Source: Nitrosopumilus sp.
GTDB lineage: Archaea; Thermoproteota; Nitrososphaeria; Nitrososphaerales; Nitrosopumilaceae
Length of the DNA: 64,000 nucleotides
Reading direction: 5' to 3'
NCBI GenBank assembly: GCA_965223425.1
Contig: OZ245003.1
Span: 448,001 to 512,000, forward strand
Positions 9,417 through 56,774 of the stretch are shown here, piece after piece. The notes under the pieces were generated by a model, which had not been told where the DNA came from, searched no databases, and saw only the letters and a program-made list of their open reading frames with translations. Position 1 is the first letter of the stretch, and every line of letters starts with the position of its first letter. Both the position numbers and the translations under genes were made by a program.

Positions 9417-9418
9417 GA

Positions 9419-38500: not shown

Positions 38501-38674
38501 GTCAGCGAGGTGCAGAGTCATCAGGAGCACGTCAGGTACAACATGACAAAATGGCCCAAGATGGGATTCTCAGAGTGCCATGTATGGTCCAAGAGCCAGA
38601 AAATAAGGCAGATCTGGGCAGGACTGGATGAAGAGGAGAAAAAAAGAATCTCACCCATCGTCATTTCATCCTGA
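35555..38674 (+). CDS. VirD4/VirB4/HerA-like ATPase with C-terminal wHTH and PD-(D/E)xK-like region
   Basis: GASGSGKT, VDPKGD, LALDEFQ, EQARSLGLGLVLSHQ; C-terminal RTDLIAY..SVEIES; 1039 aa. Confidence 0.85.
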   Translation: MGSKRWHLANKKKPAGQLGEAKHFLAAPEKLAACSITVPIEMDKKAAINAAGGLTSAGIRSFEIWWDASEKRLELVLVAEKSDLATYRQAFLNMYPNAVFTELESTEPGWFERESEYQIFDVGTHHGHYSAVFDQARAHQLITQVANTIQLSRQAWIQFVFKQHSFAPFLRRHVTRLDAKIHEIKRGRYLSNTEIIMNPDKKPHEHHELGYDLTNNYSGLQKHATLKMQSAQLLMSIRGIVKSERDLDLNFDEIEALPVENIHSGHEHLTKFRYKNKNFWDGEPKKTAVKVAGSKEKPPRIGIFEGRLLPDPVKFQDRAIGRYFDKGMLGYREREPMPFLILNQSEIPLFIHLPEPVTPNIDTTRGVTIPSKPSIKDGSCLGFFRPKEDGFEWKKMWGKIARSKDVDAAVISTADLATHIYAVGASGSGKTSLIRVLSKHLEIWNDSDEFKNAFIYVDPKGDDSHKFVRQCEKESLSSGRIHFLDPQKTRFSINPLELPTHSPWEREEVVSRYVGYFMKTIEEWYQQSASYVQMERIFRALLFYIYMKHDAPTFLDIHDIILRLQENGVRAMPHIIQTFGTPEPEMKQALTSIATLKGEAFIPLLNRVEQFATDPVLRRMFSVRHGTVDFGEIIKPGHQSIVRISPLNMPQHVQPLAMQAFILKLWFTIQERANRVPDEAERTQVVLALDEFQIVKDLQVLQLMLEQARSLGLGLVLSHQTTEQISDKQLGIISGNSGTQLIGKVNGKDASRIAQIWDPQFQKELQQQFASQEYFHWTIREKAPPGKEQPPPVQFWLARPPELTIDDHTYDEFVRAQLARYGSGSIEPNTITQAAKKRTQWIENIEVEFPTKIEWDIMRLLEGGEMRQAQIVSALHVQNRDEVAPVLKEMEEQGRIERIDAGRTSPYQLTAKTQAAYFEFDHTQIGTAQDIPEVARKAIEAYLAEGLFVAMASQRIKKGRDRTDLIAYDYSRDVPISVEIESVSEVQSHQEHVRYNMTKWPKMGFSECHVWSKSQKIRQIWAGLDEEEKKRISPIVISS

Positions 38675-40240: not shown

Positions 40241-41740
40241 TTATGTTCTATCTTGTAGCAATTTCAACTTCCATTCTAGAAATTTTGGATCTAGCGGATA
40301 TTTCATATCGTGTCTTAGTCTTAATTCAGGAGTGACGTGACTAACCCACGACCTGACCTGATTGGTAGAGTTCTCACTGAGCAACTCTGATATTTCGACT
40401 CCAAAGTCTTGCTCTATGGTTATGAAGCCTTTTTCAAAGGCGACATCACACAATCTACATAGCAACAGTCCATTTTGTGGGTTCATGGAATTATATGGAT
40501 CTTTCCTTCTCATTATACGATATGGCACTATGTGTGCTCCGATCACATAGTCGTGAATCCCAAAGCCACACAGAGCACATTTTTCATAATCCTTTAACAG
40601 CTCGGCTCGAAACACTTCTTGTTTTTTCCTAACATATACCGTCCGCATCTCCCCGTTGGAGTAAAAGTTTCCCTTCCGTATCTCTTTTTCAACGTGGTCA
40701 TACACCTCATTATTCATAGCTATCTCATCAAGCCGCCATATTCCCACTCCTAATTTTTTGTCGCCTTTCTCGTCCCAATCAACCAAGATCTTCTTTTCTC
40801 TCAAGCGACTGATCTCATTTACCACCGCCTTGTAGAGTGGGTTTTTCGATTTGTCAGAACCATACAAAGAAACATCTATCCCAAGTTTGCTTGCCACCAG
40901 AGCATCAACTTCGGTTTTGGTATGCCATATGGACTCGTATTGTAATTCCTGATTGTCCGATCTGCCTTCAGCGTGCCTGTGCTCTTTTTCTTTTATGAGG
41001 GGCATGGTGCGTCCTTCACTAGTGAGGCATTCCCAAACGTGCATCCGGAGACCTGCATGGTCTATGGGAAGTTTAAGGGTGGCTGTACGAAGCACGTCAT
41101 AAAATGATCCATGTTTCTCCGATTCTATTCGTTCGACATCATCCTTGTTGAGTTTTTTGAGGAATCTTATCCATTCCTGCATCACCTTGATCATCATTGC
41201 TTTGTTATGATTTTTGAAAAACTTCATTGCATCCGGATTCAGGTCAATTCCTGCATTCAAATCTACGAATTTTCTATTCCTGTTGATCTCCCTACCAATT
41301 TCATACTTAAAGAATGCCCGTATCTCCGCCGTCTGTGGTATCTTAACCCTTTGGAATCTCCACGTCACATTATGGAAACATTTTTTTGCTATTTGCCTGA
41401 TGCATTTTTTAATTTTCTCAGGCTCTGATCTTTTAACATAGCTTAACGTATTGTTATAATACGAGTCATCGAATTGATCTTTTATTATGTTCATGATCTC
41501 CAGCGTTTGGCCTGCCTGTGGAATTTGTTTTATCTTCAACTTTGTCTGTGGCCAATAATATTTGAGAAAATATTCCGCAATGGTCAAATAATCCACATGT
41601 GTATCAGTATTGTCCCTACTGTAGTCTAGTAGAAATTTTGCAAATGCGAATTTGTAGGTATTGTCCTTGTTACTGTTGACTAGAATTTCTGATAAAATTC
41701 TCTCAAATTCCTTGGCTTGAAAAGTGTCAAAAACCAACAT
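40241..41740 (-). CDS. HNH endonuclease (putative modification-dependent restriction)
   Basis: N-terminal NTYKFAF; C-terminal CALCG...GAHIVPY...NGLLLC..FEKG. Confidence 0.85.
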   Translation of the reverse strand: MLVFDTFQAKEFERILSEILVNSNKDNTYKFAFAKFLLDYSRDNTDTHVDYLTIAEYFLKYYWPQTKLKIKQIPQAGQTLEIMNIIKDQFDDSYYNNTLSYVKRSEPEKIKKCIRQIAKKCFHNVTWRFQRVKIPQTAEIRAFFKYEIGREINRNRKFVDLNAGIDLNPDAMKFFKNHNKAMMIKVMQEWIRFLKKLNKDDVERIESEKHGSFYDVLRTATLKLPIDHAGLRMHVWECLTSEGRTMPLIKEKEHRHAEGRSDNQELQYESIWHTKTEVDALVASKLGIDVSLYGSDKSKNPLYKAVVNEISRLREKKILVDWDEKGDKKLGVGIWRLDEIAMNNEVYDHVEKEIRKGNFYSNGEMRTVYVRKKQEVFRAELLKDYEKCALCGFGIHDYVIGAHIVPYRIMRRKDPYNSMNPQNGLLLCRLCDVAFEKGFITIEQDFGVEISELLSENSTNQVRSWVSHVTPELRLRHDMKYPLDPKFLEWKLKLLQDRT

Positions 41741-41802: not shown

Positions 41803-41920
41803 TATTGAAAGAAAAATTCACTTAAATCACAAATGATTCCACTATGATATATTGGACATGCCAACTAGGAGCAGTATTACAAAGGGATCCCGTGTATTAA
41901 TCGAGACAAAGGAGAACCAG
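41803..41920 (+). repeat. Direct repeat copy 2
   Basis: Matches 40095-40210. Confidence 0.9.
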
Positions 41921-42616
41921 GGAACCGGTCGCCTCACAGAGGGCACAGTTAAAGAGATGTTGACTGCTGGCAACTCACACCCACACGGAATAAAGGTACG
42001 ACTTGATGATGGACAGGTTGGACGTGTCAAGCAGGTAACTGTAATGAAAGGAACTGTAAAACCACAATTTGTGGATCTGAGCAAAAAAGAGATCCCAAAA
42101 ACAGAAGACAAGTACAACGAATTCAAGGAATTCTACCAGTATGATGAAAAAATCGAAAGGCTATCAAGCGACAAGGAAAAATCTAACGCCATAGACGGCA
42201 TAAAGCACTCCGTACAAAAGAGATTTGCCATAGCTGTATGTTCCTTTGGAAATTCTCACAAAGGAGGTTTTGTATATTTGGGAATACGGTCAGATGGCTC
42301 GATAGCAGGATTAGATAGAGATAAAAAATTTGGCGGATTTTCAGACTATAATGACTCATTTGCAAATCATATCAAAGACAGACTAGAAGATTTCCTAAAG
42401 GATCGTGTATTCATTACAAGCAAGGTAGAGATGAGATTCCGAACCATTGACGATAAGACCATCTGTATAATTCAAGTACTTCCTGCAGACCGGCCCTTGT
42501 ATCTTAATGATAAAGAAAAGGCGTTCTTTGTAAGGGGGGCCTCACCTAGAGCAGAAAAGCTAGACGTCGAAGAACAGTTCAGATACATAAAAGAGAGATT
42601 TCCACATCATCACTGA
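41852..42616 (+). CDS. YwbE/DUF2196 domain fused to Schlafen/AlbA_2 domain
   Basis: LTEGTVKEMLT..SHPHGIKVRL..GQVGRV; EDKYNEFKE, CSFGNS..GGFVYLGI. Confidence 0.85.
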   Translation: MDMPTRSSITKGSRVLIETKENQGTGRLTEGTVKEMLTAGNSHPHGIKVRLDDGQVGRVKQVTVMKGTVKPQFVDLSKKEIPKTEDKYNEFKEFYQYDEKIERLSSDKEKSNAIDGIKHSVQKRFAIAVCSFGNSHKGGFVYLGIRSDGSIAGLDRDKKFGGFSDYNDSFANHIKDRLEDFLKDRVFITSKVEMRFRTIDDKTICIIQVLPADRPLYLNDKEKAFFVRGASPRAEKLDVEEQFRYIKERFPHHH

Positions 42617-42618
42617 TT

Positions 42619-43578: not shown

Positions 43579-43599
43579 TCAAAAGATGTTCATTGGAAA

Positions 43600-45219
43600 T
43601 TAGGGATTTGGATCATTATATCGCCATAGATCAGCAAAGTATTCGTCTGCAAGCTCTATTGATGGGAGTATGTCCAATATTCTAATAAGTTTAAACTGTT
43701 CTGTACCTCCCATACGTGGACCGCGCATTCCACGACCGATCATCTGTTGATGAAGTACAATTGATCTAGTTGGTCTTGCTATGAACACTACATCTATGTT
43801 GGGCGCATCAAATCCAACAGAAAAAACATTAACATTGCATATGCATTTTATTTTTCCTATTTTGAATTTTGATATTACATCACGTCTATATTCTATGGGA
43901 GTTTCACCATCAACATGTGCTGCATTTCCTCCTAATGCCAAAATTATGGCACACATTAATTTTGATTGTTTTATGTTTGGAGCAAAGTATAATATTTGAT
44001 TGTTATCTGCTATTAATTTTTTCAATCGCTCGGCAATTATAAAATTTCTTCTATTGTCATTAGCAATTTTATCTAATATTTCTAATGGAAGATCATGATC
44101 ATCTGCAAATTTTCTTCTTTGTTCTTGTGTTAAGATAAATTCTCTGTCGGATCTAATAGTTTCAGGTTCACAATATGCTAGATAACCCCTTGACTGGAGA
44201 TATGATATGTTATCCATATCACCTGAATCAATTTCTATTATTTCATCATTGAAATATTCCCTCAGTTTTTTATTTTCTGGATTTTCTACTCCCCTTATGG
44301 GAGTAGCGGTAAGACCAATTATTCTAGTGCCTTTTTCTTCTAAGTGTCGTATGACGTTTTTATGGGTGCGTGCTATAACATTATGTGCTTCATCAGCCAC
44401 CACCAATTCTGGTTGTGGGAAATTATTTGAATTTAACAAATTATTTAGTTTTTGATATGTAGCTACTATGAATGCATTGGGCTTAAAATTGTCTGGAATG
44501 TTTTTCCCCCATACTCGATATACATGTAAATCAGCCTTGCCCAAATGAGACCATATCTCTTTCATCGATATGATGGCCTGTTCACACAATTCTTCACGAT
44601 CAGCAAGCCAGACTACGTGTCTCTTTTTATTATCACCGATACCATTGTTTAAAAAATTACTCACTATCTCCAAAGCTGTTCGTGTTTTACCTGCACCCGT
44701 TGGCATTTTTATGATAAAACGCATCCATGGATTTTCTATCAATCTCATCGCATCATAGAAAATTTTACTTTGATATTCTTTCAGCATTAAAAGTGGTTTA
44801 TTAGACTGTATTACAAATTCAGTACTACGATCTTCTTCAATGTTTGGCACAAGGCTTTCATCGTATCCAAATTCTTCAATGAATGCTTGTGTCTCATCAT
44901 TATGTCCCCATGTTAGCTTTGAAGCTTTTTCAATTGAATTTTTGTACAATTCTTCATTTTGAGATGGAATTGATATGCCAACTCTGTGTAAAAATCTAAT
45001 GCATTTTTTTCTATCTGCATATCTCAAAAGTTTTAGACGAAATTCTGATTTTTTGTAGGACGATATATTTAACGCATGGTGAAGTTTTCCAAGAATCTCT
45101 TTTGTTTCTATGTCGAAATTTTCATCCGATGTTATTTTGTTGAGAATTAGGTTTAATGGATCCCAGTATTCACTTAGTGCAGTTTCTAATTCACTACGTG
45201 GTAGTTTATCATTTAACAT
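43600..45219 (-). CDS. SF2 DEAH helicase (ResIII-like)
   Basis: MPTGAGKT, DEAH, LTATP, GFDAP and QMIGRGMR motifs. Confidence 0.92.
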   Translation of the reverse strand: MLNDKLPRSELETALSEYWDPLNLILNKITSDENFDIETKEILGKLHHALNISSYKKSEFRLKLLRYADRKKCIRFLHRVGISIPSQNEELYKNSIEKASKLTWGHNDETQAFIEEFGYDESLVPNIEEDRSTEFVIQSNKPLLMLKEYQSKIFYDAMRLIENPWMRFIIKMPTGAGKTRTALEIVSNFLNNGIGDNKKRHVVWLADREELCEQAIISMKEIWSHLGKADLHVYRVWGKNIPDNFKPNAFIVATYQKLNNLLNSNNFPQPELVVADEAHNVIARTHKNVIRHLEEKGTRIIGLTATPIRGVENPENKKLREYFNDEIIEIDSGDMDNISYLQSRGYLAYCEPETIRSDREFILTQEQRRKFADDHDLPLEILDKIANDNRRNFIIAERLKKLIADNNQILYFAPNIKQSKLMCAIILALGGNAAHVDGETPIEYRRDVISKFKIGKIKCICNVNVFSVGFDAPNIDVVFIARPTRSIVLHQQMIGRGMRGPRMGGTEQFKLIRILDILPSIELADEYFADLWRYNDPNP

Positions 45220-45229
45220 CTATTACATC

Positions 45230-46969
45230 CTAATTTTTGTATGATTTTCTTAAGTGATAGCTCCACTTTACAAGGTGTTCTTCTACAGTGGTTCCAACAG
45301 ACTGTGTCCTAATCAAGTCATCAAGATCGTACTGACCTTCGGCATATGCATAGATGAGTCTGTCTATGTCATTTTTGAGTTCTTGAGCAAGTTTCTTAAG
45401 TTCAGAATTTTGTGGATCAGCAGATATAGATTCTATATCTTTGATCCTTCTATATACTTCAACAAAGAATGGATGACTCATGTTATAATGAACTACTTTT
45501 TTGCCTACGTCGTCTAATACGTCAATGAACGGACCATCTGAGCGAGCCTTGTGATCGTGTATAATTTTGTACGTTGTATCTGTGTCTGTCACTTCTTTTA
45601 CATAGTCTTCCTGTTCTTTTTTATTATCAAAGAGTTCTTCTGCGTGTTTTTGTGCGTTTTCTCTATTCTCGCCTTTAGAAGCAGATGTGGGTAACGGTGG
45701 GCTAATGCCTGTAAGAGTTACTTCTATGCCAGTATGGCTTTTCAACGATCCGGTTTCAGATTCGCTCTTTTTTTGATCTTCATCATTCCAGTCTTCTTCT
45801 ATGTCTTTCCTGAACTTGTTGATTATTGAGGGTTGAATCTTTTTCTGTAATATGTCTCTTAATTCTTTGAGGGGTCTAGCACCAATTTTTATGTTCTTCA
45901 CAGAAAACCAGTGATCAAGAATTGGTTCAAAATCAATCTCACACCCCCAAAACCTATCGACAGGTTTTAGTGCTGGTGAGAATCTAGATATTGGGCCATA
46001 ATAGACTTCCCGTCCATTTCTCAATATAGAAAATCCTTCATTTTCATGTACTTTTCTTTCAATACTGTATTTGCTTCTTCCACCATAGCCTTTCAAGTGA
46101 GCGTTTTTCTGTCCCTTTCTCAAAGATCTGGGAAGGATGGATGTTCTAATTGTTATCTTGCCTTTTCTTTCACCACTACTGGGAGCGTCTACATCATGCG
46201 TCTGATGCTCAAACACATGCTCGTCTTGAAGTGTTGCACGTTCATCTGTTGGAAATTTGGGATTTTTTGTAGCATACAAAGGATCATGTGATGTAACTAA
46301 TTCGTTATTTACTCCATCATCAATGAATATTTTTCTCACATTGTCATTTTTTGTGACTTTACCATCTTTGATTATCTCTTCGCCTATGAATTTACGATAT
46401 ATTCTGCCAAGACGATGTTTGAGCTCATCGAGATCGAATTCTGTATCAATTCGTTCAATTTTACTCCAGATTACTAATGTGCCATGATCTCCTACCAGAT
46501 CTTTATATTTGTCTGGGAGATTTTTTGATTCTCTAGGATGTAGGAATGGTTCTACATCATTATCTATTCCACTATTGTCTAAAAACGTGTAGTGCCAATT
46601 TCCCTGTTTTTGTCTAGAATATACCTCGATTTTATCACATACGTTGATTGCCCCCATAGTCATTCCAACTCCAAATCGGCCTATTCCTTTTCGATCATCA
46701 TATCTATCAGAGTAACCGATAACTAGACAATTCTGGAGTTTATCAGGATTCATTCCATATCCATCGTCTCCAAATGCTATGGTTACAGGACGAGGTTTTT
46801 GTTTGCGTGGAGGCGTATTCATCTCGAATTTAATCTTGATTTCTTTTGATTCTGCTTGAATCGAATTATCTACTACTTCATAGATAGCCGAGTAAGCATC
46901 AAAGTCATTATTGCGAAGAGATTTCAGAGCCGCACCTATGAGTATGGGTGATATGCCTTCTGCGCTCAT
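45230..46969 (-). CDS. MORC/GHKL ATPase (HATPase_c_3-like)
   Basis: EVVDNSIQA, DDGYGM, GRFGVGM and HGTLVIW motifs. Confidence 0.9.
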   Translation of the reverse strand: MSAEGISPILIGAALKSLRNNDFDAYSAIYEVVDNSIQAESKEIKIKFEMNTPPRKQKPRPVTIAFGDDGYGMNPDKLQNCLVIGYSDRYDDRKGIGRFGVGMTMGAINVCDKIEVYSRQKQGNWHYTFLDNSGIDNDVEPFLHPRESKNLPDKYKDLVGDHGTLVIWSKIERIDTEFDLDELKHRLGRIYRKFIGEEIIKDGKVTKNDNVRKIFIDDGVNNELVTSHDPLYATKNPKFPTDERATLQDEHVFEHQTHDVDAPSSGERKGKITIRTSILPRSLRKGQKNAHLKGYGGRSKYSIERKVHENEGFSILRNGREVYYGPISRFSPALKPVDRFWGCEIDFEPILDHWFSVKNIKIGARPLKELRDILQKKIQPSIINKFRKDIEEDWNDEDQKKSESETGSLKSHTGIEVTLTGISPPLPTSASKGENRENAQKHAEELFDNKKEQEDYVKEVTDTDTTYKIIHDHKARSDGPFIDVLDDVGKKVVHYNMSHPFFVEVYRRIKDIESISADPQNSELKKLAQELKNDIDRLIYAYAEGQYDLDDLIRTQSVGTTVEEHLVKWSYHLRKSYKN

Positions 46970-46999
46970 TCTCTAATCTGCCATGTGCCCTTTTTTAAA

Positions 47000-47872
47000 T
47001 TATAGGTGGCAGACGGTACACGGGGTTTTCTCATCATCATCATCTAACACATCTGCCAAAACATCAACCAATGGCAAATTCTTTCTTTTTGACTTTGCTT
47101 TTTTGAGCTTTTCTTCATGCTTTTTCATTATGTCATCTCGTCTTTCCAACAGCTCTGTTAGGGTCTCTCCCTCAGACCATGTGTATTGTCTGCCTTTCAT
47201 ACCGCTTGATTTGAAATCAGCGTCTCCTGCAACACCTGCATCTTTAAGTATCTTTTGCTCTATTGCAACTGCGCGTTTGAACAAATCAGGATGATTGTCT
47301 GCAAGACCAACCCACTCTGCTTTGCGTTGAAAGAAGCAAAAATAACAACCAGAGCGTGTCCTCCACTTGTAATAATCAGGCAGGTTGATTCCTGCATCTT
47401 CTAGTATCTTTATGACACCGGTGTGATCAATGTCATCATCGATGAATGGAAATATTGTCTTGATATTTGGCTTGGTGGATACATACCCGGTTCTGCTTTT
47501 TTCATCAGAGCGAATTGCCACGTATGATGTTACTTCAGCGTCTCCAATCCAGTCCTCAAGTGGCTTTATCTTCAACATACTAGTACACCACCTCATCTGT
47601 GGAGATGGAAGTGTACCACGAAATACCTCAAAATAATGATCAAAACTTCGAGTAGAGTTTAGTTTTATGATTTTTTTGCCTAGGACGACTTCAAGCTTTG
47701 CAAGATAAGCATAGGTCTCTGGCAGTTCTGCACCTGTATCGCAGAAAAAATACTCCATGTCTGGAACTTTATCTCGCATGTATACAGCAAGGGCACTAGA
47801 ATCTTTACCTCCAGATATTCCGCAAACGTGTCTTGGCAATAACAATTGAAAAGATTCTAAGAATATAATCAT
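47000..47872 (-). CDS. PAPS-reductase family protein, SspD/DndC-like
   Basis: SGGKDS, DTGAELPE, RWCT..LKIKP and RSGCYFCFFQ motifs. Confidence 0.85.
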   Translation of the reverse strand: MIIFLESFQLLLPRHVCGISGGKDSSALAVYMRDKVPDMEYFFCDTGAELPETYAYLAKLEVVLGKKIIKLNSTRSFDHYFEVFRGTLPSPQMRWCTSMLKIKPLEDWIGDAEVTSYVAIRSDEKSRTGYVSTKPNIKTIFPFIDDDIDHTGVIKILEDAGINLPDYYKWRTRSGCYFCFFQRKAEWVGLADNHPDLFKRAVAIEQKILKDAGVAGDADFKSSGMKGRQYTWSEGETLTELLERRDDIMKKHEEKLKKAKSKRKNLPLVDVLADVLDDDDEKTPCTVCHL

Positions 47873-48035
47873 TATTATCTAAATTCCAAATAAAAGGTAG
47901 ATCCGGCGTGGAATTTCGGAGTTGCAAGCATGGTGCCTAAAACTCTCAGATGGGTATTATTCACGTCTAAATTTAGTCTTGAGAAAAGTTATCGAACATA
48001 CCATATTGAAGACAAACCTTTAAACTTGAAAATAG

Positions 48036-49817
48036 TTGTTTACTAGCAACATGGGTAACATCTGCCATTCAGAAACAGATCCACTTGGTACTATATTGGA
48101 TGGTAGAACTAGTTTTATCGTTCCAAATTATCAAAGAGCATATAGTTGGGGAAACGATAAAGTTAACGAACTTTGGGAAGATCTTGTAGATGGCTATGCT
48201 AGTGATCCCAATCATTTGTATCTGTTAGGTCCGATTGTTGTAGTAAAACTGCCAGGTACAAGGATATTGAATGAGATTGTTGACGGACAACAACGTTTGG
48301 TTACTCTTACGCTGTTATTTTGTGCCTTGCGTAACTCACTAGCAGAACATGAACCAAACAACGAGTTTGATAAAAAAGATTATACGGATTTGATAGATGA
48401 AATTAACAAATCAATAAGAACAGATGCTAAACAGCCATTAATCAAACTGAATAATAAAGATGATAATGATGTTTTTACAGATATTTGTAATGCAAAAAAC
48501 CCATTACAAAATACAACATCGAATACATCGCTAACTGCTAATTATGACATATTATTAAAACTGGCTAGAGAATTATGTAAAAAACGTTTTGATAAGGAAA
48601 ATGATAGGGATGCGATACGCAGTATCAGAAAGACATTTTGCACTATAAAGAATAACACTAATTTCATATATGTTACTATTCAAGACGAAGATTACTCATA
48701 TCAAGTTTTTCAATCTTTGAATTCCAAAGGTCAGAAGCTTAATCAAGCTGATCTAATTAAAAGCATTCTTTTGAACAAAGCGCCCGACAAGGTAACGGAT
48801 AGATGGGATGCAATAATGAGTTCTAAACCAATCAAGAAAAATCCTGATGATTTTCTGTACTATTCAATGTTGTCTAGAACATGTCCCAAATCAGATGGAT
48901 CAGACGAAGTGCTAAAAATAAAAATGTCTAGCAGAATAAAAAGCAAATGTAAAAATCCGACAGATGTGGAGGAATATTTAAAAGAACTCTCAGAAGATTC
49001 GCGCATAATAGAAGTGTTAAACAGACCCGAGACCCTGCGTTCAGAAGATAAATATGATTTAGACTTTATACATTTTTTTTATGGAATACAACAAATCAAC
49101 GCAAAATATTTTCGGAGGCCTATAATTACTGCATATAGAGAATGGGGATCTTCAAACAGTGATACTAAACTTCTGATAGGCTGTCTTTTAAAATTCTTCT
49201 TCATGTACCGAACAATTTCTAAATTGGACATAGATCTGTTAAAACGAATTGCTAGAGATGTGACATGCCATATTCTGAATGGAAAAAAACTAGATGAGAT
49301 TTTATACACTATACTGAAGAGTGAAAAACCAGGTGTCGAAGATAACATTAACCAAGATGATTTCATGAATGAGTTCAAAAATAACATAAATAATTTAAAA
49401 ACCTCGGTTGCTACCTACATACTTTATTCATTAGAAAAAAAACTTCATGATGATCAAGGTACACACATAGAATTCAACAAATATCACATAGAGTACATAT
49501 TTCCAAAAAATCCCGATTATGAAAAATGGGCTAACAAAGATGAATTAGACGATCATAAAAATCGACTAGGCAACCTAACATTACTAGATATGAAGTGGAA
49601 TGCTACTATGAAAAACTACAGCTTTGAGGATAAGCGCAATAAAGGAACTAGATGTTATCTGGAATCAGGTTTGGAATTGAATAAAAAATATCTTAGAAAA
49701 TATGAACGATGGGGAATAGAAGAAATCGAAAAACGTGAAAAAGAATTGATTGAATGTGCAAGTGGAATCTGGAATCTAGCCGAGTATCTTCAACTAGCAA
49801 AAAAACCCCAAGATTGA
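48036..49817 (+). CDS. DUF262 + DUF1524 protein (SspE/GmrSD-like)
   Basis: PNYQRAYSW, VDGQQR, FQSLNSKG; C-terminal IEYIFP and RLGNLTLL. Confidence 0.9.
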   Translation: MFTSNMGNICHSETDPLGTILDGRTSFIVPNYQRAYSWGNDKVNELWEDLVDGYASDPNHLYLLGPIVVVKLPGTRILNEIVDGQQRLVTLTLLFCALRNSLAEHEPNNEFDKKDYTDLIDEINKSIRTDAKQPLIKLNNKDDNDVFTDICNAKNPLQNTTSNTSLTANYDILLKLARELCKKRFDKENDRDAIRSIRKTFCTIKNNTNFIYVTIQDEDYSYQVFQSLNSKGQKLNQADLIKSILLNKAPDKVTDRWDAIMSSKPIKKNPDDFLYYSMLSRTCPKSDGSDEVLKIKMSSRIKSKCKNPTDVEEYLKELSEDSRIIEVLNRPETLRSEDKYDLDFIHFFYGIQQINAKYFRRPIITAYREWGSSNSDTKLLIGCLLKFFFMYRTISKLDIDLLKRIARDVTCHILNGKKLDEILYTILKSEKPGVEDNINQDDFMNEFKNNINNLKTSVATYILYSLEKKLHDDQGTHIEFNKYHIEYIFPKNPDYEKWANKDELDDHKNRLGNLTLLDMKWNATMKNYSFEDKRNKGTRCYLESGLELNKKYLRKYERWGIEEIEKREKELIECASGIWNLAEYLQLAKKPQD

Positions 49818-49825
49818 TCATGTGA

Positions 49826-49993
49826 TCATTTTATCTTAGATGCTAGCTCATCAAATTCTTTTTTGGAGACTGTCAGACAGAACAGTACTTTGTTGGGTTT
49901 TTTTGCATTTTTTATCATAGGGTAGAATTTTATGGTGTACATGTTGTCCTTTTTTATAATCTCGTATGGCCTCTCGCCTATCTTATTTCGCAC
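49826..49993 (-). CDS. Small hypothetical protein or remnant
   Basis: GTG-started 55-codon frame VRNKIGERPYEIIKKDNMYTIKFYP... Confidence 0.35.
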   Translation of the reverse strand: MRNKIGERPYEIIKKDNMYTIKFYPMIKNAKKPNKVLFCLTVSKKEFDELASKIK

Positions 49994-50157
49994 TTGATGT
50001 CTTAACTGGCATGTGATTTTATAGTTTTACAATAGACAGGCGAATTCGGCCTTGAATATTATTATACTAGTTTATCGTACTATAACTTACCGTATCCGAA
50101 ACCTCTGGACTATCCGATAAAGATGGGGAATCGGGGGCATGATTGTGGATACGGCTT

Positions 50158-50721
50158 TTATTTTAAATTCTCATTGAGCTTTTCTTTGATCCATTCTGTC
50201 GAATCTAGATGAATCAACCCGTCAATATTCATCTCATCATTATTTGCCCATGCAACAAGATCCGATAGGGTATGAATGAAGGCATTTTTAGAATGACATA
50301 GATTGTTATCTACGACAAATCCTAGACAGTCTAAATCACATTGAAAATTAATACGTGATAATTCTTCTTTATGACTCGTTGTAAATTTGGTAATATCTTC
50401 ATGGATGAATTTGTATAGCAAGTGGTTGTACCTGCGATGTATTGCACGGTATCTAGTGGGACTGATTTTCTTTTTGGCGTTCTCAATTATGTCGTGTTTG
50501 TCCAACCGTATACAAAGCGCAATGTTTTCTCTGTAGTTAAATTCAAGTTTGGATGCAAGCTCTCTACGCATTCTGCTGGTTTTAAGTGTAGCAGAATGGA
50601 TTTTATTTATTTCTAAATTTTTAATCATGGCAACAAGATTTTCTTCTACTCCGACTACAAGTCCCATATATTTCGAGTCGTCATTAGGTCTTCCAGAAAG
50701 ATCCATTCCTCCAACAAGCAT
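50158..50721 (-). CDS. DUF3800-like (RNase H fold) hypothetical protein
   Basis: MDLSG near the N-terminus and LSDLVAW near the C-terminus; 3 bp downstream of the ATPase gene. Confidence 0.55.
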   Translation of the reverse strand: MLVGGMDLSGRPNDDSKYMGLVVGVEENLVAMIKNLEINKIHSATLKTSRMRRELASKLEFNYRENIALCIRLDKHDIIENAKKKISPTRYRAIHRRYNHLLYKFIHEDITKFTTSHKEELSRINFQCDLDCLGFVVDNNLCHSKNAFIHTLSDLVAWANNDEMNIDGLIHLDSTEWIKEKLNENLK

Positions 50722-50724
50722 GTT

Positions 50725-53700
50725 TTACACTTGGAATTTAGAGCTCAGCGTTGCTATTAATGCGTTAAGATCCTTGTCAGTTAATCCTGACTTTTTCATA
50801 TCTTTTAATATTTTAACTACGAGTTTTTCCATTTTCTTTTTTTGTTCGGGTCTTAATGATACTACGGTATGGTGTTCGCTGCCATCTGCATGAGTTACTG
50901 TTACCTGATATGACGGCTTTACAAAATTATTCGATATATTTGCAAAATGAATCGATGCTAGTCTCTTGAATTTTCCAGATATCGACATCAGGTTATTCTC
51001 AAACATTGCACGTTGATCATCAGTCCAAGATATAGGTGATACTTCTGTCAGGCTCAGGGCCACATAGTTTATCCAGTCCTCATCTCGCTCCAAGACATCA
51101 GATGATAATGCAGTAAGAAACACCTTCATCTTTTGATCAGTAATGCTTTGAAGCATTACAGAGGCAGCTTTTGACAGCTTTGCCCTGTTGTCGATTCCCG
51201 TTGAATCAAAGAGCATTTTTTTGATATCTTGCGTCAGCTTGAGGTATTCATTTTGTAGTGTGGTCTTGGATTTGGTAAGAGTGCTTGAGAATTTTACCAT
51301 GTCTTTTTGTGAGGTTTTAGAGTCAAATCCTAGTGCATTTGGAAGTGATTCAAACAACAAGGTGTCTGGCTCTACTGCGTGCAATACCGCATCTCTTACC
51401 GCCATAGAGTCTTTGTCAAGTCTTTTTGTCTGCTTTACATATGGGGGCAATGCAGACACGATTCGAACTAGGCGTGATACCACATCAAGCACACTGCCTT
51501 CCGAGTTTATCTCAAAGTCAGATATGACCGTCTTTAGCAGTTGCTTTTTGGATGGTGTGCTCTTGAAATATTTGACTTCAAAGTGATCAGGATTCTTTAT
51601 CATTCGCTCTGCAATCTCGATCATAATGTATGGTGTGTACGTGCCATGTTCATACAAGGCAATGTTGTTTTTGTATATCAAAAGAATTGCAACTGCAAAT
51701 ATTGCCAAAACGCCATCCTTTATTCCAAATGGCGAGAGTCTGCACATTTGATATATCTTTGATAGTGGTACTCGCTTGCTAGATTTTTTGATCATATGCA
51801 GAATCGCATCCCACGCCGGCTTGATTTCAGGCCCTCTTGGATCCTGCAGCTTCCATTTGTTTCCTATCGTACCGACATGAATTTTATGGTGATCAAATAT
51901 CGCATTGTATATTGCAACATCGGGACCAAATCCCTCCAGACCAAAGTTGGCCTGGTCTGCATGATTTATCATGTGTTCCAACAGCTTTCTTTTTGCGGCA
52001 GACCCCTGCGAGGATAAGACGGTTCTGTTTATCATCTCGTTGTATATGTGTGGGGTCTGAGGGTATTTTTCATTGCACACCCTGGAGATAATGGCACTTG
52101 GGGTTCCTGACTGTTTTACCGGTTTGTCTGTGAGATATGACCACATCGCGTTTGTTCCATATGTGATTCCAAATTCTCTATCCAAGATGATCTCGGCATC
52201 GGCCAGCCTTTCTTCTAGTTCTTTGCGCGCTACCCAGTCTGATATGACATCTTCGTTGTTGTCTAGAATATCGCGTATTGCCATTACCTCTGTTACTGCG
52301 TGTCGCAGATCAGAGGTGTCACCGGCAGTTACTACAACAAGGGGCTTGTCGGATTTGAATGCAAGGGAATCTCCGGTATTGTATATTATTGCACCGTCAT
52401 AGTTATCATCGAGTTTTATCTCCGGTGTCGTGGTAAATATCCGCTTGAACAGTCTGATTGTGCCGGTCTCTATGCTGTGCCTTGCGGCAACGACGGGTTC
52501 GAGGTTCATGACCTCTTGCAGCATGCCGGTCAGGGAGTACTTTTGATACCTCTTGCGGTACATGTCTAGCTTTGCTGCAATGTCAATGTCTGTACCATGC
52601 CATATCCTGTATTCGTCTGCATACTTTCTGTATGTAATGATGGATTTTTTCTCTAGTTTCTTCAGCACTTGCGTTGCCCCTTCACCCACCGCATAGTTGA
52701 TTATCTTACGTGATGCTCGAAGGTATCCGGATCTCCCAATCAGGTTTAGTATTCCTATGGTCTTGAGGGTCTTTGTCTCTTCCTTGGTCAGTCCGTGCGA
52801 GTCGCGTATTATGGTCTCGATCTCCATAAGTCTGGTAATGCTTGCAGAGCTTGAATGGATCATGCTAGTGCCGGATATGAAATAATCATACAATGTGTCG
52901 AGTCCTATCGACGGCAGCTCGTCTTCTTCCTTCCATGTATTCTCGTCGATGAATGTCGCAACCGTATGCTTGCCGGCATCTGATATAAACGACAGCAGGG
53001 TGCGCTCGTGCTGACCATACCGAGAGCATAACTCCGGCAGAACCTCTAATGCAAGCGGCTCTAGTGGATAGCATGCCGCTACTGTATTGGAGTCAAAGCC
53101 GCTGTCTATGCCGAGACTTTGCATCTGATTTGATTCTTTTTTGGCCCATCTGTAGACATGGCGGCGATTCTTGGTATTTTCGTCTGGTTTTATGGTATTT
53201 GAGATCAAAAGCCTGGTTTGGTCAGGTGAGTTTGCAAATGGAATATCCTCGAATCTTCCCTGGATCTTTGCCCATTCCTGTTTTTGTGTGGCAGAAACGC
53301 CGACTGCATATTCTTCGAACGCCATATGTTGTAACGTGATTATTGACAATGGGAGCTTTCTGCCCGGGCCGGACATCTCTGCAAGCTCCTGCAATAGGAA
53401 CAAGTCGCTTTGTTGGGACTCGTCGGTAGCAAAGTATTCTATGTTTTTGCCAAACTCGTCGATCATTATAACTACTGGCAATTCTTTGCACATGCTCGAT
53501 ATTATCTCCGTCACTTTTTTTGTTGTAGGTATCCTGTTGTTTTTCAAGTCGCGCATGCTTTTGCGCAGCTCGTTTGCCTGTGTGAAATTATTCGTAGTGT
53601 ATCTTTCAAAATATCTGGTTGCTCCGCCGTCTAGCGCGCGGAGTATGGTCGCAGTTATGGGTTCACGCCGCGCCGTTGCCGTACATCTTATCAATCCGTC

Positions 53701-54069
53701 ATTGTGGGTTTTTGTCTTTCCCCTTGCGCTGCGCAGTATCTGGGCAGTATCAGCTGATGTGGCCTTTAACGTCTTGTATGCCACTTGCCATTCAGCATCG
53801 TCTTTTGTTGCCAACAGTCCGTTTAGAAATATCATCATGGTGGACTTGCCCGAGCCGTATGGTCCTGTGATGGATAGCATCCTGCCACTTTTGGCTCCGC
53901 GCAGACCTGCAGAAAACCGTTCTATTATCTCAATGGTGCTAGCACTAGGAAGATAATTTTTCATGGTTGTAATGTCATCGTTTTCTATGTTTGCAGATGG
54001 GAATTGTTTTGGTGGCACCGTGACCAATCTGGACAGGGGAACGGCTTTGGATTTTTGAGCAACTCTCAA
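50725..54069 (-). CDS. Large P-loop ATPase, SspC/BrxC-like
   Basis: ITGPYGSGKS, IDEFGK, EWAKIQGRF, CYPL and GQHERTL motifs; 1114 aa. Confidence 0.85.
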   Translation of the reverse strand: MRVAQKSKAVPLSRLVTVPPKQFPSANIENDDITTMKNYLPSASTIEIIERFSAGLRGAKSGRMLSITGPYGSGKSTMMIFLNGLLATKDDAEWQVAYKTLKATSADTAQILRSARGKTKTHNDGLIRCTATARREPITATILRALDGGATRYFERYTTNNFTQANELRKSMRDLKNNRIPTTKKVTEIISSMCKELPVVIMIDEFGKNIEYFATDESQQSDLFLLQELAEMSGPGRKLPLSIITLQHMAFEEYAVGVSATQKQEWAKIQGRFEDIPFANSPDQTRLLISNTIKPDENTKNRRHVYRWAKKESNQMQSLGIDSGFDSNTVAACYPLEPLALEVLPELCSRYGQHERTLLSFISDAGKHTVATFIDENTWKEEDELPSIGLDTLYDYFISGTSMIHSSSASITRLMEIETIIRDSHGLTKEETKTLKTIGILNLIGRSGYLRASRKIINYAVGEGATQVLKKLEKKSIITYRKYADEYRIWHGTDIDIAAKLDMYRKRYQKYSLTGMLQEVMNLEPVVAARHSIETGTIRLFKRIFTTTPEIKLDDNYDGAIIYNTGDSLAFKSDKPLVVVTAGDTSDLRHAVTEVMAIRDILDNNEDVISDWVARKELEERLADAEIILDREFGITYGTNAMWSYLTDKPVKQSGTPSAIISRVCNEKYPQTPHIYNEMINRTVLSSQGSAAKRKLLEHMINHADQANFGLEGFGPDVAIYNAIFDHHKIHVGTIGNKWKLQDPRGPEIKPAWDAILHMIKKSSKRVPLSKIYQMCRLSPFGIKDGVLAIFAVAILLIYKNNIALYEHGTYTPYIMIEIAERMIKNPDHFEVKYFKSTPSKKQLLKTVISDFEINSEGSVLDVVSRLVRIVSALPPYVKQTKRLDKDSMAVRDAVLHAVEPDTLLFESLPNALGFDSKTSQKDMVKFSSTLTKSKTTLQNEYLKLTQDIKKMLFDSTGIDNRAKLSKAASVMLQSITDQKMKVFLTALSSDVLERDEDWINYVALSLTEVSPISWTDDQRAMFENNLMSISGKFKRLASIHFANISNNFVKPSYQVTVTHADGSEHHTVVSLRPEQKKKMEKLVVKILKDMKKSGLTDKDLNALIATLSSKFQV

Positions 54070-55019
54070 TGTGTCAACAACCTCATCTGTGGATTCTTGT
54101 CAAGGCGGAGCTTTCTACCGTATGCCAGATGTAGTATCTCCATATGGGCCTTTTCTACAGAGTCAAAGACTAGATGCTGTGCCCCGTTGATGTTGGACAT
54201 CCTTATCGACTCTGCCTTGTTGCATGCCTCCTGGAGCATGTCGGCAATATCATTTTCACCCATCTTGAAGACATTTCCAACGCTTCCGGTCTCGGTTGCA
54301 AGCCTGCCAACGGAGATGCTCTTTGAGGTTATGCCTGCCCTACCCACAAAGTCAATGCACGCAAAGGCCACGATCAGGGGCGATATGCCGTGTTTTTTGC
54401 CAAATACGAACCTCATCGTATCCTTTGAGCTCTGCTTTATCAGGTGTAGCTGTCGGAATGGGCAGTCTAGATAGTCCTCAATGGATAGCTTGGCCTGTCT
54501 GGTACTATAGGTGCGTATGAACACGTCGATATCCTTTTTGACGGATTTTTCACTGGGAGTGTTCCAGTCAGACAGGTTTCTGACGCGCGCCATAACCGAC
54601 TCTGTTACATCCTCGATCTTGAGGTTTGTAGCAGAAAACTCGTTCATAATTATCCACCATACCGGAACCTTGCAAGGAGGGGCAAACAACAGCCAGTGCA
54701 ACAACCACAATGTATCGGGTTGTTCAAGGTAGGGATCAAGACCCTTTTCTCCAAATATAGTGCGTCCCATGTGTGTGGGCTCCCATGTGGCCTTACTTGA
54801 ATGACCGCGTGGTTCTATTATCTTGTTTGCCGTACTCCAAAACCTCATGGAACGAACCATGTTCTTTCCTACTCCGAGTCGTATGGTCGCGTCATCACGT
54901 GAAAATATTTTCCTATCATCTCTTGCCTTGTCATATGCCTTTTTGAGCCATCCGTATCGAAGATGGAATGATTCGTGGTTTGCAAACACGGGTGCAGGTA
55001 TTGCTTCTGTGATCAACAT
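54066..55019 (-). CDS. DUF4007 family protein, SspB-like
   Basis: FANHESFHLRYGWLKK, LGVGKNMV and DPYLE..TLWLLHW motifs. Confidence 0.9.
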   Translation of the reverse strand: MLITEAIPAPVFANHESFHLRYGWLKKAYDKARDDRKIFSRDDATIRLGVGKNMVRSMRFWSTANKIIEPRGHSSKATWEPTHMGRTIFGEKGLDPYLEQPDTLWLLHWLLFAPPCKVPVWWIIMNEFSATNLKIEDVTESVMARVRNLSDWNTPSEKSVKKDIDVFIRTYSTRQAKLSIEDYLDCPFRQLHLIKQSSKDTMRFVFGKKHGISPLIVAFACIDFVGRAGITSKSISVGRLATETGSVGNVFKMGENDIADMLQEACNKAESIRMSNINGAQHLVFDSVEKAHMEILHLAYGRKLRLDKNPQMRLLTH

Positions 55020-56194
55020 TATATCTTTGCAACCTCCGCTTCTTTTCCTCTAACATATTGTACCGCATTTACAATCGAGTTTACTGCCACATCGATATCC
55101 TGTTGCGTTGTATGGCGTCCTATTGATATCCGTATTGATTCGTTTGCCTCGTCTGTATTCAAACCCATGGCAGTGAGAACATGGGATGGTTCCATAGCTG
55201 CTGACGAGCAGGCGCTACCTGTTGCTATCTCTATTTCAGGAGCATTTACAATTACTGCATCAGCAAGTGCGCCGTTGATTCGTATACTTGATGTGTTTGG
55301 AATTCTGTCTGCGTTTTTTCCATTTATTGAAACATCTGAAATAGAGTCTGTTATCTTTTTCTCAAAATTATCTCGTAGCTGTTTTTGTCGTGGACTGTCA
55401 CCCAATCCCTTGACTGATGCAATCTCGCAGGCTTTGCCAAATCCGACTATGCCTGGTACGTTGAGTGTTCCACTGCGCATGTTTTTCTCCTGGCCCCCAC
55501 CATACAGTATTCCCTGCATCTGTTTTCTAGCATGTCTGGTGGCTACTAGCGCACCACATCCCTTGGGACCGTAAATCTTGTGGCTGCTAAACGTTACCAT
55601 GTCAATATCAAGATCCTCTGCGTTAAAGGGAATCTTTCCTATGGCCTGTGTGGCATCACAATGAACTAGGGCATTATATGCATGGGCCCGTTGAGCAATC
55701 TCTTTGATTGGCTGAATTACGCCCGTCTCGCTGTTTGCAGCCATCACCGAGACAATATCTATTCCTCCATTAAACAATTCTTTCTCCAACATGCTAAGGT
55801 CGATTATGCCATCTTTGTTTACCGGAATTTTTCTGACATTGGCTTCCTTCTCTGACAACAACCTGCACGGTTCTAGAACTGATTTGTGTTCTGTGCTTCC
55901 AACTAGAACGCGTAATGGGCTTTCCTTGTTTATTGATAATCCAAAAAAGATCATGTTATTGGCCTCGGTGGCACCAGATGTGAATATAACATCAGCCGGC
56001 CTCATCCCCACAATGTCTGCAACATGTGTCCGTGCATCCTCCACTAGGTCGGCTGCAATATTTCCGGTATTGTGATTCTCACTTGATGGATTTCCAAAAT
56101 TTTTTGTAAATACAGGGATCATGGATTCTAACACACTTTCATCAACTGGGGTAGTAGAGTTGTAATCAAGATATGCCACGTAATAGATTTTCAA
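55019..56194 (-). CDS. Cysteine desulfurase (SspA/DndA/IscS-like)
   Basis: YLDYNSTTP, FTSGATE, SSHKIYGPKG and GSACSS motifs. Confidence 0.95.
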   Translation of the reverse strand: MKIYYVAYLDYNSTTPVDESVLESMIPVFTKNFGNPSSENHNTGNIAADLVEDARTHVADIVGMRPADVIFTSGATEANNMIFFGLSINKESPLRVLVGSTEHKSVLEPCRLLSEKEANVRKIPVNKDGIIDLSMLEKELFNGGIDIVSVMAANSETGVIQPIKEIAQRAHAYNALVHCDATQAIGKIPFNAEDLDIDMVTFSSHKIYGPKGCGALVATRHARKQMQGILYGGGQEKNMRSGTLNVPGIVGFGKACEIASVKGLGDSPRQKQLRDNFEKKITDSISDVSINGKNADRIPNTSSIRINGALADAVIVNAPEIEIATGSACSSAAMEPSHVLTAMGLNTDEANESIRISIGRHTTQQDIDVAVNSIVNAVQYVRGKEAEVAKI

Positions 56195-56774
56195 TCATGA
56201 TTTATATCTCTAATCTATTTCAAGCAGTGCGAGCTTGGGGTCACATCCTGACGATCTGTCGCTTATTATAGAATCACAGCATTTGTAATGCATCTTTGGA
56301 TCTGCTCCGATCATCCGGACTCGATCTCTGATTTACAGAGCTCGCCCTCTCCAGAGTGCAAGCCCGTCAGGCAAGACTATTATGATACAGTGCCGTAATA
56401 TTAAACCGATGACAGCACAGAGTACCCACTCTTTCCAATCATCAAAGTTCGTCGGGCCCACCGGCCTCAACCGAGAAAAGCTGGCAGGGAAGATTTCAAA
56501 AATGTCATAGATCCGTACACCCATTACCATACATGACGTACAGGAATTCGGACAAGTCTGGGTTTCGTACGCTATACCGATTAGGTGTCATCCAACCAGC
56601 ACAAAAAACACAAAACTAACACGAAAAGGAAACTTTATGATACCCATGCTGTATTAATCATCGTGCCAAAAACACAAGATCCAAACAATCCTGAAAATAA
56701 AGATGGGGAGCCGGCCGGAAGACACAGACTCCCGCCGAGGGCGCCATCATTTTAGTTTAAATCCCTCACCGATA

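Follow-up and report, generated by a model that had tools for sequence, protein, structure and literature searches.

Which enzymes serve a phosphorothioate (PT) writer of the Ssp type when it is encoded, in an archaeon, beside a MORC-like ATPase and a superfamily 2 (SF2) helicase? The question is raised by a locus of Nitrosopumilus sp. (assembly GCA_965223425.1) lying within a stretch of 64,000 nucleotides (nt) of contig OZ245003.1 (positions 448,001 to 512,000; G000:C1:448001-512000 in our notation, where G000 denotes the 2.64-Mb genome in two contigs), which we call the window and to which coordinates refer unless another locus is named. Across genomes, 2,211 of 2,678 sspBCD clusters (83.9%) are without a known restriction partner, and further partners have been suggested (PMC8092258); Dnd modification genes often occur without DndFGH as well (PMC10853773). 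An earlier note, made from the sequence of the region 43600-56194, had proposed the MORC and helicase, possibly with a convergent nuclease of the phospholipase D (PLD) fold, as an alternative effector module for the Ssp writer. Among the outcomes set beforehand as refuting it were a match of these proteins to SspF/G/H or another described effector, and a lack of linkage to sspD in other genomes. We found linkage to writers in many lineages and no match to a described PT effector beyond a weak one of the helicase core to PbeA. We consider it fairly probable that the locus encodes a two-part PT defence, in which SspABCD would act as the writer and a MORC, helicase, HKD nuclease and AlbA_2 protein would form a restriction arm that cuts DNA without host marks. 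Such an arm would consist of known families in an undescribed pairing, and the whole would be a PT-based form of restriction-modification (R-M).

A complete SspABCD writer beside MORC, helicase and nuclease genes

All the genes that had been named within 43600-56194 were found at their places. The minus strand encodes a cysteine desulfurase, SspA (55019-56194; Aminotran_5 6.8e-77, values in brackets being profile E-values), a DUF4007 protein, SspB (54066-55019; DUF4007 3.9e-87, 288 of 288 positions), a BrxC-like ATPase of 1114 amino acids, SspC (50725-54069; BrxC 2.6e-104), and a PAPS-reductase-type ATP pyrophosphatase, SspD (47000-47872; PAPS_reduct), whose SGGKDS motif occupies residues 20-25. 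All four gave full-length matches to their PADLOC profiles (SspA 9.6e-134 over 374 of 374 profile positions; SspB 3.5e-96; SspC 7e-302 over positions 3-1104 of 1104; SspD 9.5e-110), bearing out the assignment to an SspABCD writer module. PglZ and BrxL, looked for as markers of BREX type 4, had no PADLOC match among the scanned window proteins, and SspC and SspD match BrxC and BrxP weakly. The tight spacing described earlier was also seen, with overlaps of 1 nt between SspA and SspB and 4 nt between SspB and SspC, and gaps of 3 nt between SspC and the following open reading frame (ORF), 30 nt between SspD and MORC, and 10 nt between MORC and helicase. The ORF between sspC and sspD, of 187 amino acids (ORF187; 50158-50721, minus strand), is conserved and without a family match in Pfam, PADLOC or NCBIfam; homologues of 35-42% identity occupy the same position in four of the loci collected below (L002, L003, L004 and L007). 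Its former label, ‘DUF3800-like’, has no Pfam support even at E ≤ 1, and draws only on a language-model lead from the Atlas to clusters bearing DUF3800, the third Atlas match (score 0.93) being a cluster with DUF3800 in 15% of its members.

Downstream of sspD, the minus strand encodes a MORC-like ATPase (45230-46969; HATPase_c_3 4.8e-20) composed of GHKL and S5 domains, a helical linker and a conserved C-terminal domain. Residues of the N-box, G1 and G2 motifs of the Bergerat fold (E31, N35, D68xGxG72 and G95-G102) are invariant or nearly so, and a profile of the family matched human and mouse MORC3/4/2 in the PDB. In an AlphaFold 2 model (predicted local distance difference test score, pLDDT, 81.8), the GHKL and transducer (S5-fold) domains are followed by a long helical linker and then a C-terminal domain that is compact. 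When this model was compared with known structures using Foldseek, the best TM-scores were obtained for MORC4 (7k7t, TMt 0.57 at a root-mean-square deviation, rmsd, of 6.0) and MORC2 (9cdh, TMt 0.50); Hsp90 reached lower E-values, but at an rmsd near 18 Å. The sole PADLOC match was a weak one to MzaB (9.2e-8), NCBIfam gave MzaB and BbrUII below threshold, and the C-terminal domain (465-579) produced only noise in Pfam at E ≤ 1. Among the candidates scored, 1049 relatives were found at E ≤ 0.001.

The next gene on this strand (43600-45219; ResIII 4.5e-24, Helicase_C 4.3e-15) codes for an SF2 DEAH helicase/translocase in which all SF2 motifs are present, with PTGAGKT at residues 173-179, DEAH at 276-279, and TATP and QxxGRGxR conserved. 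Its sequence matched RadD (6jde) and SauUSI (7clg, 6e-14) in the PDB, and in PADLOC its core resembled PbeA weakly (3e-22, positions 237-602 of 672), along with SauUSI-type type IV enzymes. Sub-threshold NCBIfam matches were to RadD and to TIGR04095 ‘dnd_restrict_1’ (2.7e-14, 53 bits against a 600-bit cut-off). The N-terminus (1-145) gave only noise in Pfam at E ≤ 1.

Convergent with the helicase gene, and ending 21 nt from it, lies a plus-strand gene (42619-43578) for an HKD (PLD-fold) nuclease of 319 amino acids with a winged-helix-like C-terminal domain. Residues H87, K89, N104, E117, H219 and D220 are invariant across 21 sequences, and the AlphaFold 2 model (pLDDT 92.8) places residues 1-154 close to the PLD domain of SauUSI (Z 16.9; rmsd 2.0 over 144 residues), Nuc (Z 14.7) and BfiI (Z 14.3). 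The Pfam PLDc_2 match lies below cut-off (19.3 against 27 bits). Residues 173-319 resemble N.BspD6I (Z 7.6), FokI (6.5), SspB (6juf, 6.4) and BrxA (6.3), as well as ArsR-type winged helices, and since Z-scores below 8 may reflect a common arrangement of elements, a winged-helix DNA or PT reader in the nuclease is treated as a lead suggested by the model. For the C-terminal domain (140-319), Pfam at E ≤ 1 gave noise, and the best Atlas score for the C-terminal part, 0.85, is below the meaningful level. The family comprises 927 cluster representatives at E ≤ 1e-30 among 1.84 billion. Some longer relatives carry extra C-terminal domains (proteins P0135 and P0194), namely EVE, by a marginal match (6.9e-5; 23.3 against 23 bits), and Peptidase_S24 (2.6e-10); the EVE domain reads modified bases.

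Only 2 nt upstream of the nuclease gene on the same strand is a gene (41852..42616) for a protein combining DUF2196 (1e-23) with a Schlafen-type AlbA_2 domain (SLFN_AlbA_2, 1.7e-10). Its residues E85, E90 and D168, which may correspond to the Schlafen nuclease triad, are kept in nine sequences.

Apart from the weak match of the helicase core to PbeA, these proteins do not match a described PT effector. None of 13 window proteins matched SspF, SspG or SspH in PADLOC at E ≤ 0.01, in a library that includes an SspF model (PDLC02794). The same 13 gave no match to PbeC, a CxC ABC ATPase, or to the DndE-like PbeD, and DndF/G/H had no PADLOC match in the scanned window proteins. The PLD protein matched no PADLOC profile at all, and the MORC, helicase and PLD proteins were without matches to SspE/F/G/H, DndF/G/H or PbeB/C/D, so that by these profiles the set is not a known PT effector.

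MORC-helicase pairs are linked to PT writers across phyla

The extent to which this gene set accompanies PT writers elsewhere was determined using an alignment of 22 relatives of the MORC (A1). Of 98 matching stretches that encode a relative, the best 80 were kept, representing 78 distinct loci, and these were searched by tblastn with the window proteins. Loci were called helicase-linked when a helicase gene lies within 1.5 kb downstream of MORC on the same strand, which is the case in 39 of the 78. Within this set, PLD was found in 29 loci, SspD (within 10 kb) in 27, SspC in 26, SspB in 22, AlbA_2 in 9 and GmrSD in 6; among the 39 control loci, in which MORC relatives lack the helicase, SspD and PLD were each found in 2. 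Linkage of MORC and helicase to sspD in other genomes, and the convergent PLD nuclease as a possible partner, were thus both upheld.

SspD is missing from 12 helicase-linked loci, three of which are contigs of 1.6-7.2 kb. When the other nine were scanned with PADLOC, DndA, DndB, DndC and DndD were found within 10 kb in seven (L006, L009, L012, L019, L028, L029 and L033). In L011, DndC lies ~13.5 kb from MORC, and in L024 the contig ends 3.7 kb downstream and DndC is on another contig of the genome. With both kinds of writer counted, one lies within 10 kb in 34 of the 39 helicase-linked loci, and in 29 of the 30 that have at least 9 kb on both sides, L011 being the thirtieth. The loci with a linked writer represent 12 phyla that have names: Nitrososphaerota, Poribacteria, Bacteroidota, Planctomycetota, Pseudomonadota, Myxococcota, Zixiibacteriota, Methanobacteriota, Verrucomicrobiota, Acidobacteriota, Woesearchaeota and Bacillota. 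SspD, on the same strand, is found at most 100 nt upstream of MORC in six loci (L002, L004, L005, L007, L017 and L063), which span Nitrososphaerota, Poribacteria, Planctomycetota and an unclassified archaeon, and in nine loci MORC is preceded, within 180 nt, by a gene like SspA/DndA.

In a maximum-likelihood tree of 40 MORCs, obtained by a quick search, the seven Dnd-linked rows were scattered among the Ssp-linked ones (6 changes), and the Dnd label showed no tighter clustering than it did in 160 of 500 shuffles. The Dnd-linked MORC of another Nitrosopumilus (L006) is 59% identical to that of the window. Since close relatives stand beside Dnd instead of Ssp genes, the arm is not tied to one writer. 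The pairing of MORC and helicase with Ssp that had been proposed holds, and is widened in two respects: Dnd writers are paired with the arm too, and the AlbA_2 protein also belongs to it.

The association was also seen in two samples of genomes that were not seeded with MORC, comprising 401 genomes of the archaeon's phylum and 400 Pseudomonadota around one centre. In the phylum, SspD was found at E ≤ 1e-20 in 10 genomes, 7 of which reach E ≤ 1e-95. Six of these 7 have a MORC-family match within 5 kb on the same contig (in G161 a fragment of only 43 residues, 310 nt from SspD), with two such loci in G000; in G168, whose assembly is fragmented, SspD and MORC are on separate contigs. None of the three weaker SspD-like matches is accompanied by MORC. 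In Pseudomonadota, SspD occurs in 12 of 400 genomes, and in 4 (G414, G451, G470 and G746) SspB-C-D are followed by helicase and MORC, with PLD in 3 of the 4.

The order of genes varies. In the loci of these four genomes (L084-L087) it runs SspB-C-D, helicase, MORC, PLD, which is that of the second locus of the archaeon described below and the opposite of that in the window. With helicase-first and MORC-first orders both recurring, the layout of the arm is conserved in at least two forms. Between MORC and helicase, 17 loci, mostly from bacteria, have an accessory gene for a protein of 159-224 amino acids (e.g. L017:11644-12312 and L019:11635-12291). This gene is not in the window, and the only matches of its profile, in a search of 22 proteins, were to the C-terminal domains of the two MORCs of G000 (2e-6 and 3.8e-10), so that by sequence it looks like a stand-alone paralogue of the MORC C-terminal domain. 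A Rhodobacteraceae plasmid (CP049030.1) encodes a MORC, a 210-amino-acid accessory protein (327816-328448), a helicase and a protein of PLD size, and ~9 kb away SspD and SspC; all of these are annotated as ‘hypothetical’ or ‘ATP-binding protein’. A plasmid relative from Nocardiopsis (H2, 27% identity) has no helicase or writer nearby, and belongs to the distant MORC relatives.

The genome of the archaeon holds a second such locus (L080; G000:C1:~1514500-1528700), with SspA-B-C, an ORF of 192 amino acids (ORF192) and SspD. The four Ssp proteins are 66-91% identical to those of the window. ORF192 shares 41% identity with ORF187 and had nothing above noise in Pfam at E ≤ 1. Facing the ssp genes are genes for a DUF2196-AlbA_2 protein (52%), a PLD nuclease (76%; hhalign 2.9e-89 to the nuclease alignment), an SF2 helicase (32-34%) and a MORC-like ATPase (27%), the last two representing a divergent lineage. 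Within L080 (G000:C1:1509000-1528999, the locus occupying 5520-19734), the helicase gene is split (7699-8607 and 9632-10435) by an insertion sequence (IS) whose DDE_3 transposase lies at 8588-9697 on the minus strand. The second locus is an internal replicate of the association between writer and arm, and in it MORC and helicase co-vary as one pair, PLD and AlbA_2 as another.

A predicted restriction arm and the explanations that compete with it

The model that we favour builds on the observed gene identities, folds, conserved catalytic residues and writer linkage, and on the mobile element described below. By analogy with the literature on homologues, SspA would mobilise sulfur from cysteine, and SspB, SspC and SspD would install PT marks at short motifs on host DNA. 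In the arm, the helicase would translocate on DNA driven by ATP, and a MORC dimer may clamp or loop DNA in an ATP-gated manner, as proposed for MORC R-M operons (PMC2292703). The winged-helix part of the nuclease would read DNA or its PT state, and the dimerised HKD domain would cut DNA without host marks. We infer the formation of a complex, a PT-reading role for one of its parts, and unmarked DNA as its target. This logic would be that of DndFGH and SspFGH, with the parts of PbeA or SauUSI split into separate proteins and MORC added; a GmrSD/SspE-like gene in the locus may supply a second arm that is gained or lost.

Could the arm instead follow the logic of SspE, being activated by host PT and then nicking or degrading nearby incoming DNA? 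SspE needs PT to act and is harmless without its writer (PMC8092258, PMC9646914), and a writer beside the arm in 34 of 39 loci would suit an effector with no use in the absence of PT and, equally, one whose activity is toxic when PT is lacking. The arm is almost never found without a writer and writers are often found without the arm, an asymmetry that is expected if the arm needs the mark, but that does not separate SspFGH-like from SspE-like logic. In addition, the modelled C-terminal domain of the nuclease, which is weakly like the recognition modules of SspB and FokI, could bind marked sites. Set against this, enzymes that combine HKD and SF2 activities (type I/III-like, PbeA) are in general interpreted as acting against DNA that is unmarked or foreign (PMC10853773), and SspFGH damages non-PT DNA (PMC8092258). 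Moreover, pairing with both Ssp and Dnd, which place single-strand and double-strand PT at differing motifs, would be harder for a sequence-specific PT sensor. It is because of the enzyme types and the pairing with both kinds of writer that we favour the cutting of unmarked DNA and regard activation by host PT as unlikely.

The region between ORF187 and sspD had been described as an inverted insert. It does lie on the opposite strand, yet what was left unnamed is a variable insert encoding a GmrSD-family enzyme of 593 amino acids with DUF262 and DUF1524 domains (48036..49817, plus strand; GmrSD_N 1.3e-34, GmrSD_C 1.9e-19). This enzyme might be the real partner of SspABCD, leaving MORC, helicase and PLD to another PT task such as the repair or control of PT-associated nicks. 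Its gene sits inside the ssp cluster and holds the same position in L003 and L007. The protein has the SspE architecture of an N-terminal DUF262 NTPase with DGQQR and a C-terminal DUF1524 nuclease, including a C-terminal His-Me-finger-like stretch, and it matches the PADLOC profile ‘Orf5’ over its full length (7.6e-59), the accession numbers of Orf5 lying between those of the Dnd and Pbe models. However, the gene is present in only 6 of the 39 helicase-linked loci, and in neither the close relatives L002 and L004 nor the second locus. The profile of a stand-alone GmrSD, HEC-06, fits far better (4.9e-70, full length) than the best SspE profile (4.6e-21), which covers residues 25-109 at the N-terminus; full-length similarity to SspE profiles of ~750-800 positions was not found. 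A dedicated nuclease with invariant catalytic residues also suits restriction more than repair, making this division of labour quite improbable in our view. The GmrSD/SspE-like enzyme is better seen as a second candidate effector, since one SspBCD can serve SspE and SspFGH additively (PMC8092258). The earlier claim of an alternative effector is therefore supported as far as writer linkage and the absence of a match to described effectors go, but with an SspE-like GmrSD in the locus the MORC set may be an additional rather than an alternative arm.

That MORC, helicase and PLD are a self-contained defence, brought near PT writers merely through defence islands or mobile elements, is very improbable: prokaryotic MORC and helicase operons do occur with methylases or alone (PMC2292703), the element carries unrelated defence-type genes (the HNH endonuclease described below and GmrSD) and distant MORC relatives such as the plasmid relative H2 have no writer nearby (37 of the 39 loci without helicase), yet writers are rare (SspD in 10 of 401 and 13 of 401 sampled genomes) while 34 of 39 loci have one within 10 kb, arm and writer genes are interspersed and separated by no more than 100-180 nt, and no DNA methyltransferase is found among the scanned genes of the element.

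Several points weigh against a restriction arm of this make-up. All the support for it is drawn from comparative genomics; the loci were picked by patterns derived from this MORC family, kin are not independent, and the MORC tree is a quick search version. The PLD homologue is missing by tblastn from 10 of 39 helicase-linked loci and the AlbA homologue from 30 of 39. In the window, the PLD and AlbA genes lie on the strand opposite to MORC and helicase and therefore do not form one operon with them. A linked MORC is absent from 8 of the 12 SspD-positive Pseudomonadota (7 have no match, and in G467 a different contig holds just a weak fragment), which makes the arm common but not universal; and the second locus, where an IS splits the helicase beside intact SspABCD, indicates that the arm can be lost. 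The textbook HKD motif is HxK(x)4D, the aspartate of which is not conserved in the nuclease family, and the similarity of the nuclease's C-terminal domain to DNA-recognition modules (Z 6.3-7.6, below 8) may be just a common arrangement. Finally, the GmrSD gene is another plausible effector at the locus.

A wider reading, which we put forward tentatively and hold to be somewhat doubtful, is that MORC, helicase and HKD nuclease, with or without AlbA_2, form a general arm for backbone-sulfur marks that plugs into Ssp or Dnd writers, and that its HKD nuclease carries a winged-helix PT reader of the SspB/DndG/FokI type. Such an arm might explain a large share of orphan sspBCD and dnd clusters, perhaps larger than that of SspE or SspFGH. 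If this were true, prokaryotic MORCs would act as DNA clamps powered by ATP and directed by an epigenetic mark, foreshadowing eukaryotic MORCs at marked chromatin. The conserved gene set beside both kinds of writer provides a concrete candidate partner for orphan writers. It would give prokaryotic MORC ATPases, for which a role in restriction has been predicted since 2008, a defined epigenetic mark, and would extend Ssp-type PT defence to ammonia-oxidising archaea, carried by an integrating element.

The locus is cargo of an element integrated at tRNA-Asp

The host was confirmed as an ammonia-oxidising archaeon, as the genome encodes archaeal AmoA (392 bits). In the window, a tRNA-Asp gene predicted by ARAGORN (32102-32179, plus strand) has a 3' end that forms the left attachment repeat (32163-32186; direct-repeat family D3), and a copy of that end, identical at 23 of 24 nt, lies on the plus strand at 56730..56753 as the right attachment repeat. 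An exact 19-nt core, for which 100 shuffles gave an expectation of 0, starts at 32163 and again at 56730. Directly inside the left repeat is a gene for a tyrosine integrase (32246..33541, plus strand; Phage_integrase 7e-17), followed by an actin-like ParM homologue (34669-35502; MreB_Mbl 6.5e-14) and a TraG/TrwB-like coupling ATPase that belongs to the element's backbone (35555..38674, plus strand; TrwB_AAD_bind 2.3e-5, TraG-D_C 1.2e-3). Over this stretch of integrase, ParM and TraG the fraction of G and C is ~0.51, compared with 0.36-0.39 in the flanks.

We then compared the site with its counterparts in 30 sampled genomes of the same genus. In 23 of these, the tRNA-Lys/tRNA-Asp pair lies 35-100 nt from the homologue of window position ~58700, so that the site is empty; 5 of the 30 are unresolved, and 2 carry other inserts, of 5.4 kb (G824:C1:306676-312376) and 15.7 kb (G816:C1:557113-572809). 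In G000, where the tRNA pair is at 31930-32180, the corresponding distance is 26.5 kb. The tRNA-Lys/tRNA-Asp site is thus an integration hot spot in the genus. From the attachment repeats, the integrase and the empty sites in congeners it follows that the Ssp and MORC genes and their neighbours are carried as cargo by an element of 24.6 kb inserted at tRNA-Asp, in line with the mobile element suggested before.

Further genes lie between backbone and arm. A small ORF after the TraG-like ATPase (38661-39125) resembles MazE/AbrB-type antitoxins below cut-off (MazE_antitoxin 9.8e-5), and the ~1.1 kb that follow (39126-40240) hold no ORF of at least 70 amino acids. Next comes a separate cargo gene for an HNH endonuclease of 499 amino acids (40241..41740, minus strand; HNH_2 1.4e-10 in Pfam, HNH 1.2e-21 in PADLOC). 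It is flanked by 109-nt direct repeats (D1; 40102-40210 and 41812-41920, 90% identical), which suggests that it was inserted or recombined in as a cassette; the second copy runs across the start of the DUF2196-AlbA_2 gene. This endonuclease was considered as a PT-dependent enzyme and rejected, because its match to the NCBIfam ‘phosphorothioated DNA-binding restriction endonuclease’ is limited to the HNH part (model positions 156-279 of 284; 39 against 180 bits). Just beyond the right repeat is a remnant of an IS630-like transposase (57140-58087; HTH_33/HTH_32), which shares 24% identity with the transposase of the IS in the second locus, and a similar gene is present at 15988-16977. A scan of 41500-57000 for sigma-70 promoters and terminators gave counts as in shuffled sequence (51 against 46.6 and 10 against 10.3), with a consensus unsuited to an archaeon. 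A look-up of RNA runs returned none that covers 43600-50800.

Comparison with known systems

A link of MORC or of a GHKL ATPase to PT or SspD was not found among the papers listed by full-text searches of the literature, whose scope did not extend to subscription journals and supplementary tables. In the literature searched, nothing relevant emerged for SspABCD with phospholipase D, helicase or histidine kinase, and for MORC with dnd or ssp terms the only mention among the matches listed was a citation of the 2008 MORC paper in a reference list. The terms ‘PAPS’ and ‘dnd’ are absent from the text of PMC2292703, as are ‘MORC’ and ‘GHKL’ from the main text of PMC10853773, the 2024 reappraisal of PT machinery in which nucleases adjoining Dnd genes are catalogued; the supplementary datasets of the latter, which possibly include such neighbourhoods, were outside the scope. 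A 2026 survey of BREX (PMC12839542, supplementary datasets again outside the scope) does not mention GHKL, paraMORC or MutL, and MORC or GHKL with Ssp are not mentioned in a SAR11 ‘unknomics’ study (PMC13712998) or a 2024 bioRxiv landscape of defence systems.

SspABCD-SspE, known from Vibrio cyclitrophicus FF75 and E. coli 3234/A, shares with the window the four-gene writer and a DUF262 and DUF1524 enzyme with DGQQR. In the archaeon, however, the conserved partners are MORC, helicase and HKD nuclease, which are unreported for SspE systems, and the GmrSD protein matches SspE at its N-terminus only. The SspFGH system of Vibrio anguillarum FF-93 likewise places a restriction arm of several genes next to SspBCD; SspF carries a Walker A motif and SspH resembles FtsK (PMC8092258), whereas the ATPases of the window are of the GHKL and SF2 helicase types.

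The two activities of PbeA (TIGR04095), an HKD endoDNase and an SF2 helicase beside a PT writer, are the same as those found here. PbeA is an HKD-SF2 fusion that is commonly found downstream of Dnd (PMC10853773), whereas in the window the HKD nuclease is encoded separately and has a winged-helix-like domain of its own, MORC is added, and PbeC and PbeD are not matched. SauUSI (7clg), an ATP-dependent type IV enzyme, provides the best structural match to the nuclease domain and has HKD, SF2 motor and recognition domain in common with the locus; it is a single polypeptide that cuts modified DNA and has no writer, in contrast to the split parts encoded beside a writer here. DISARM (DrmA, DrmB, the PLD protein DrmC and a methylase) similarly unites helicase, PLD nuclease and a DNA-marking enzyme, and the PLD of L029 matches DrmC weakly (4e-10), but the window has no match to DrmA or DrmB/DUF1998, its PLD has none to DrmC, its mark would be PT rather than methyl, and MORC is present.

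A parallel in gene content is offered by the operons of a MORC-type GHKL and S5 ATPase, an SFII helicase and a nuclease, sometimes HKD, that Iyer, Abhiman and Aravind predicted in 2008 to be R-M systems, and which are laterally mobile and found at integration hot spots (PMC2292703). Those operons are paired with DNA methylases, whereas in the loci described here the same kinds of ATPase, helicase and nuclease are paired with Ssp or Dnd, and the mark would be a phosphorothioate.

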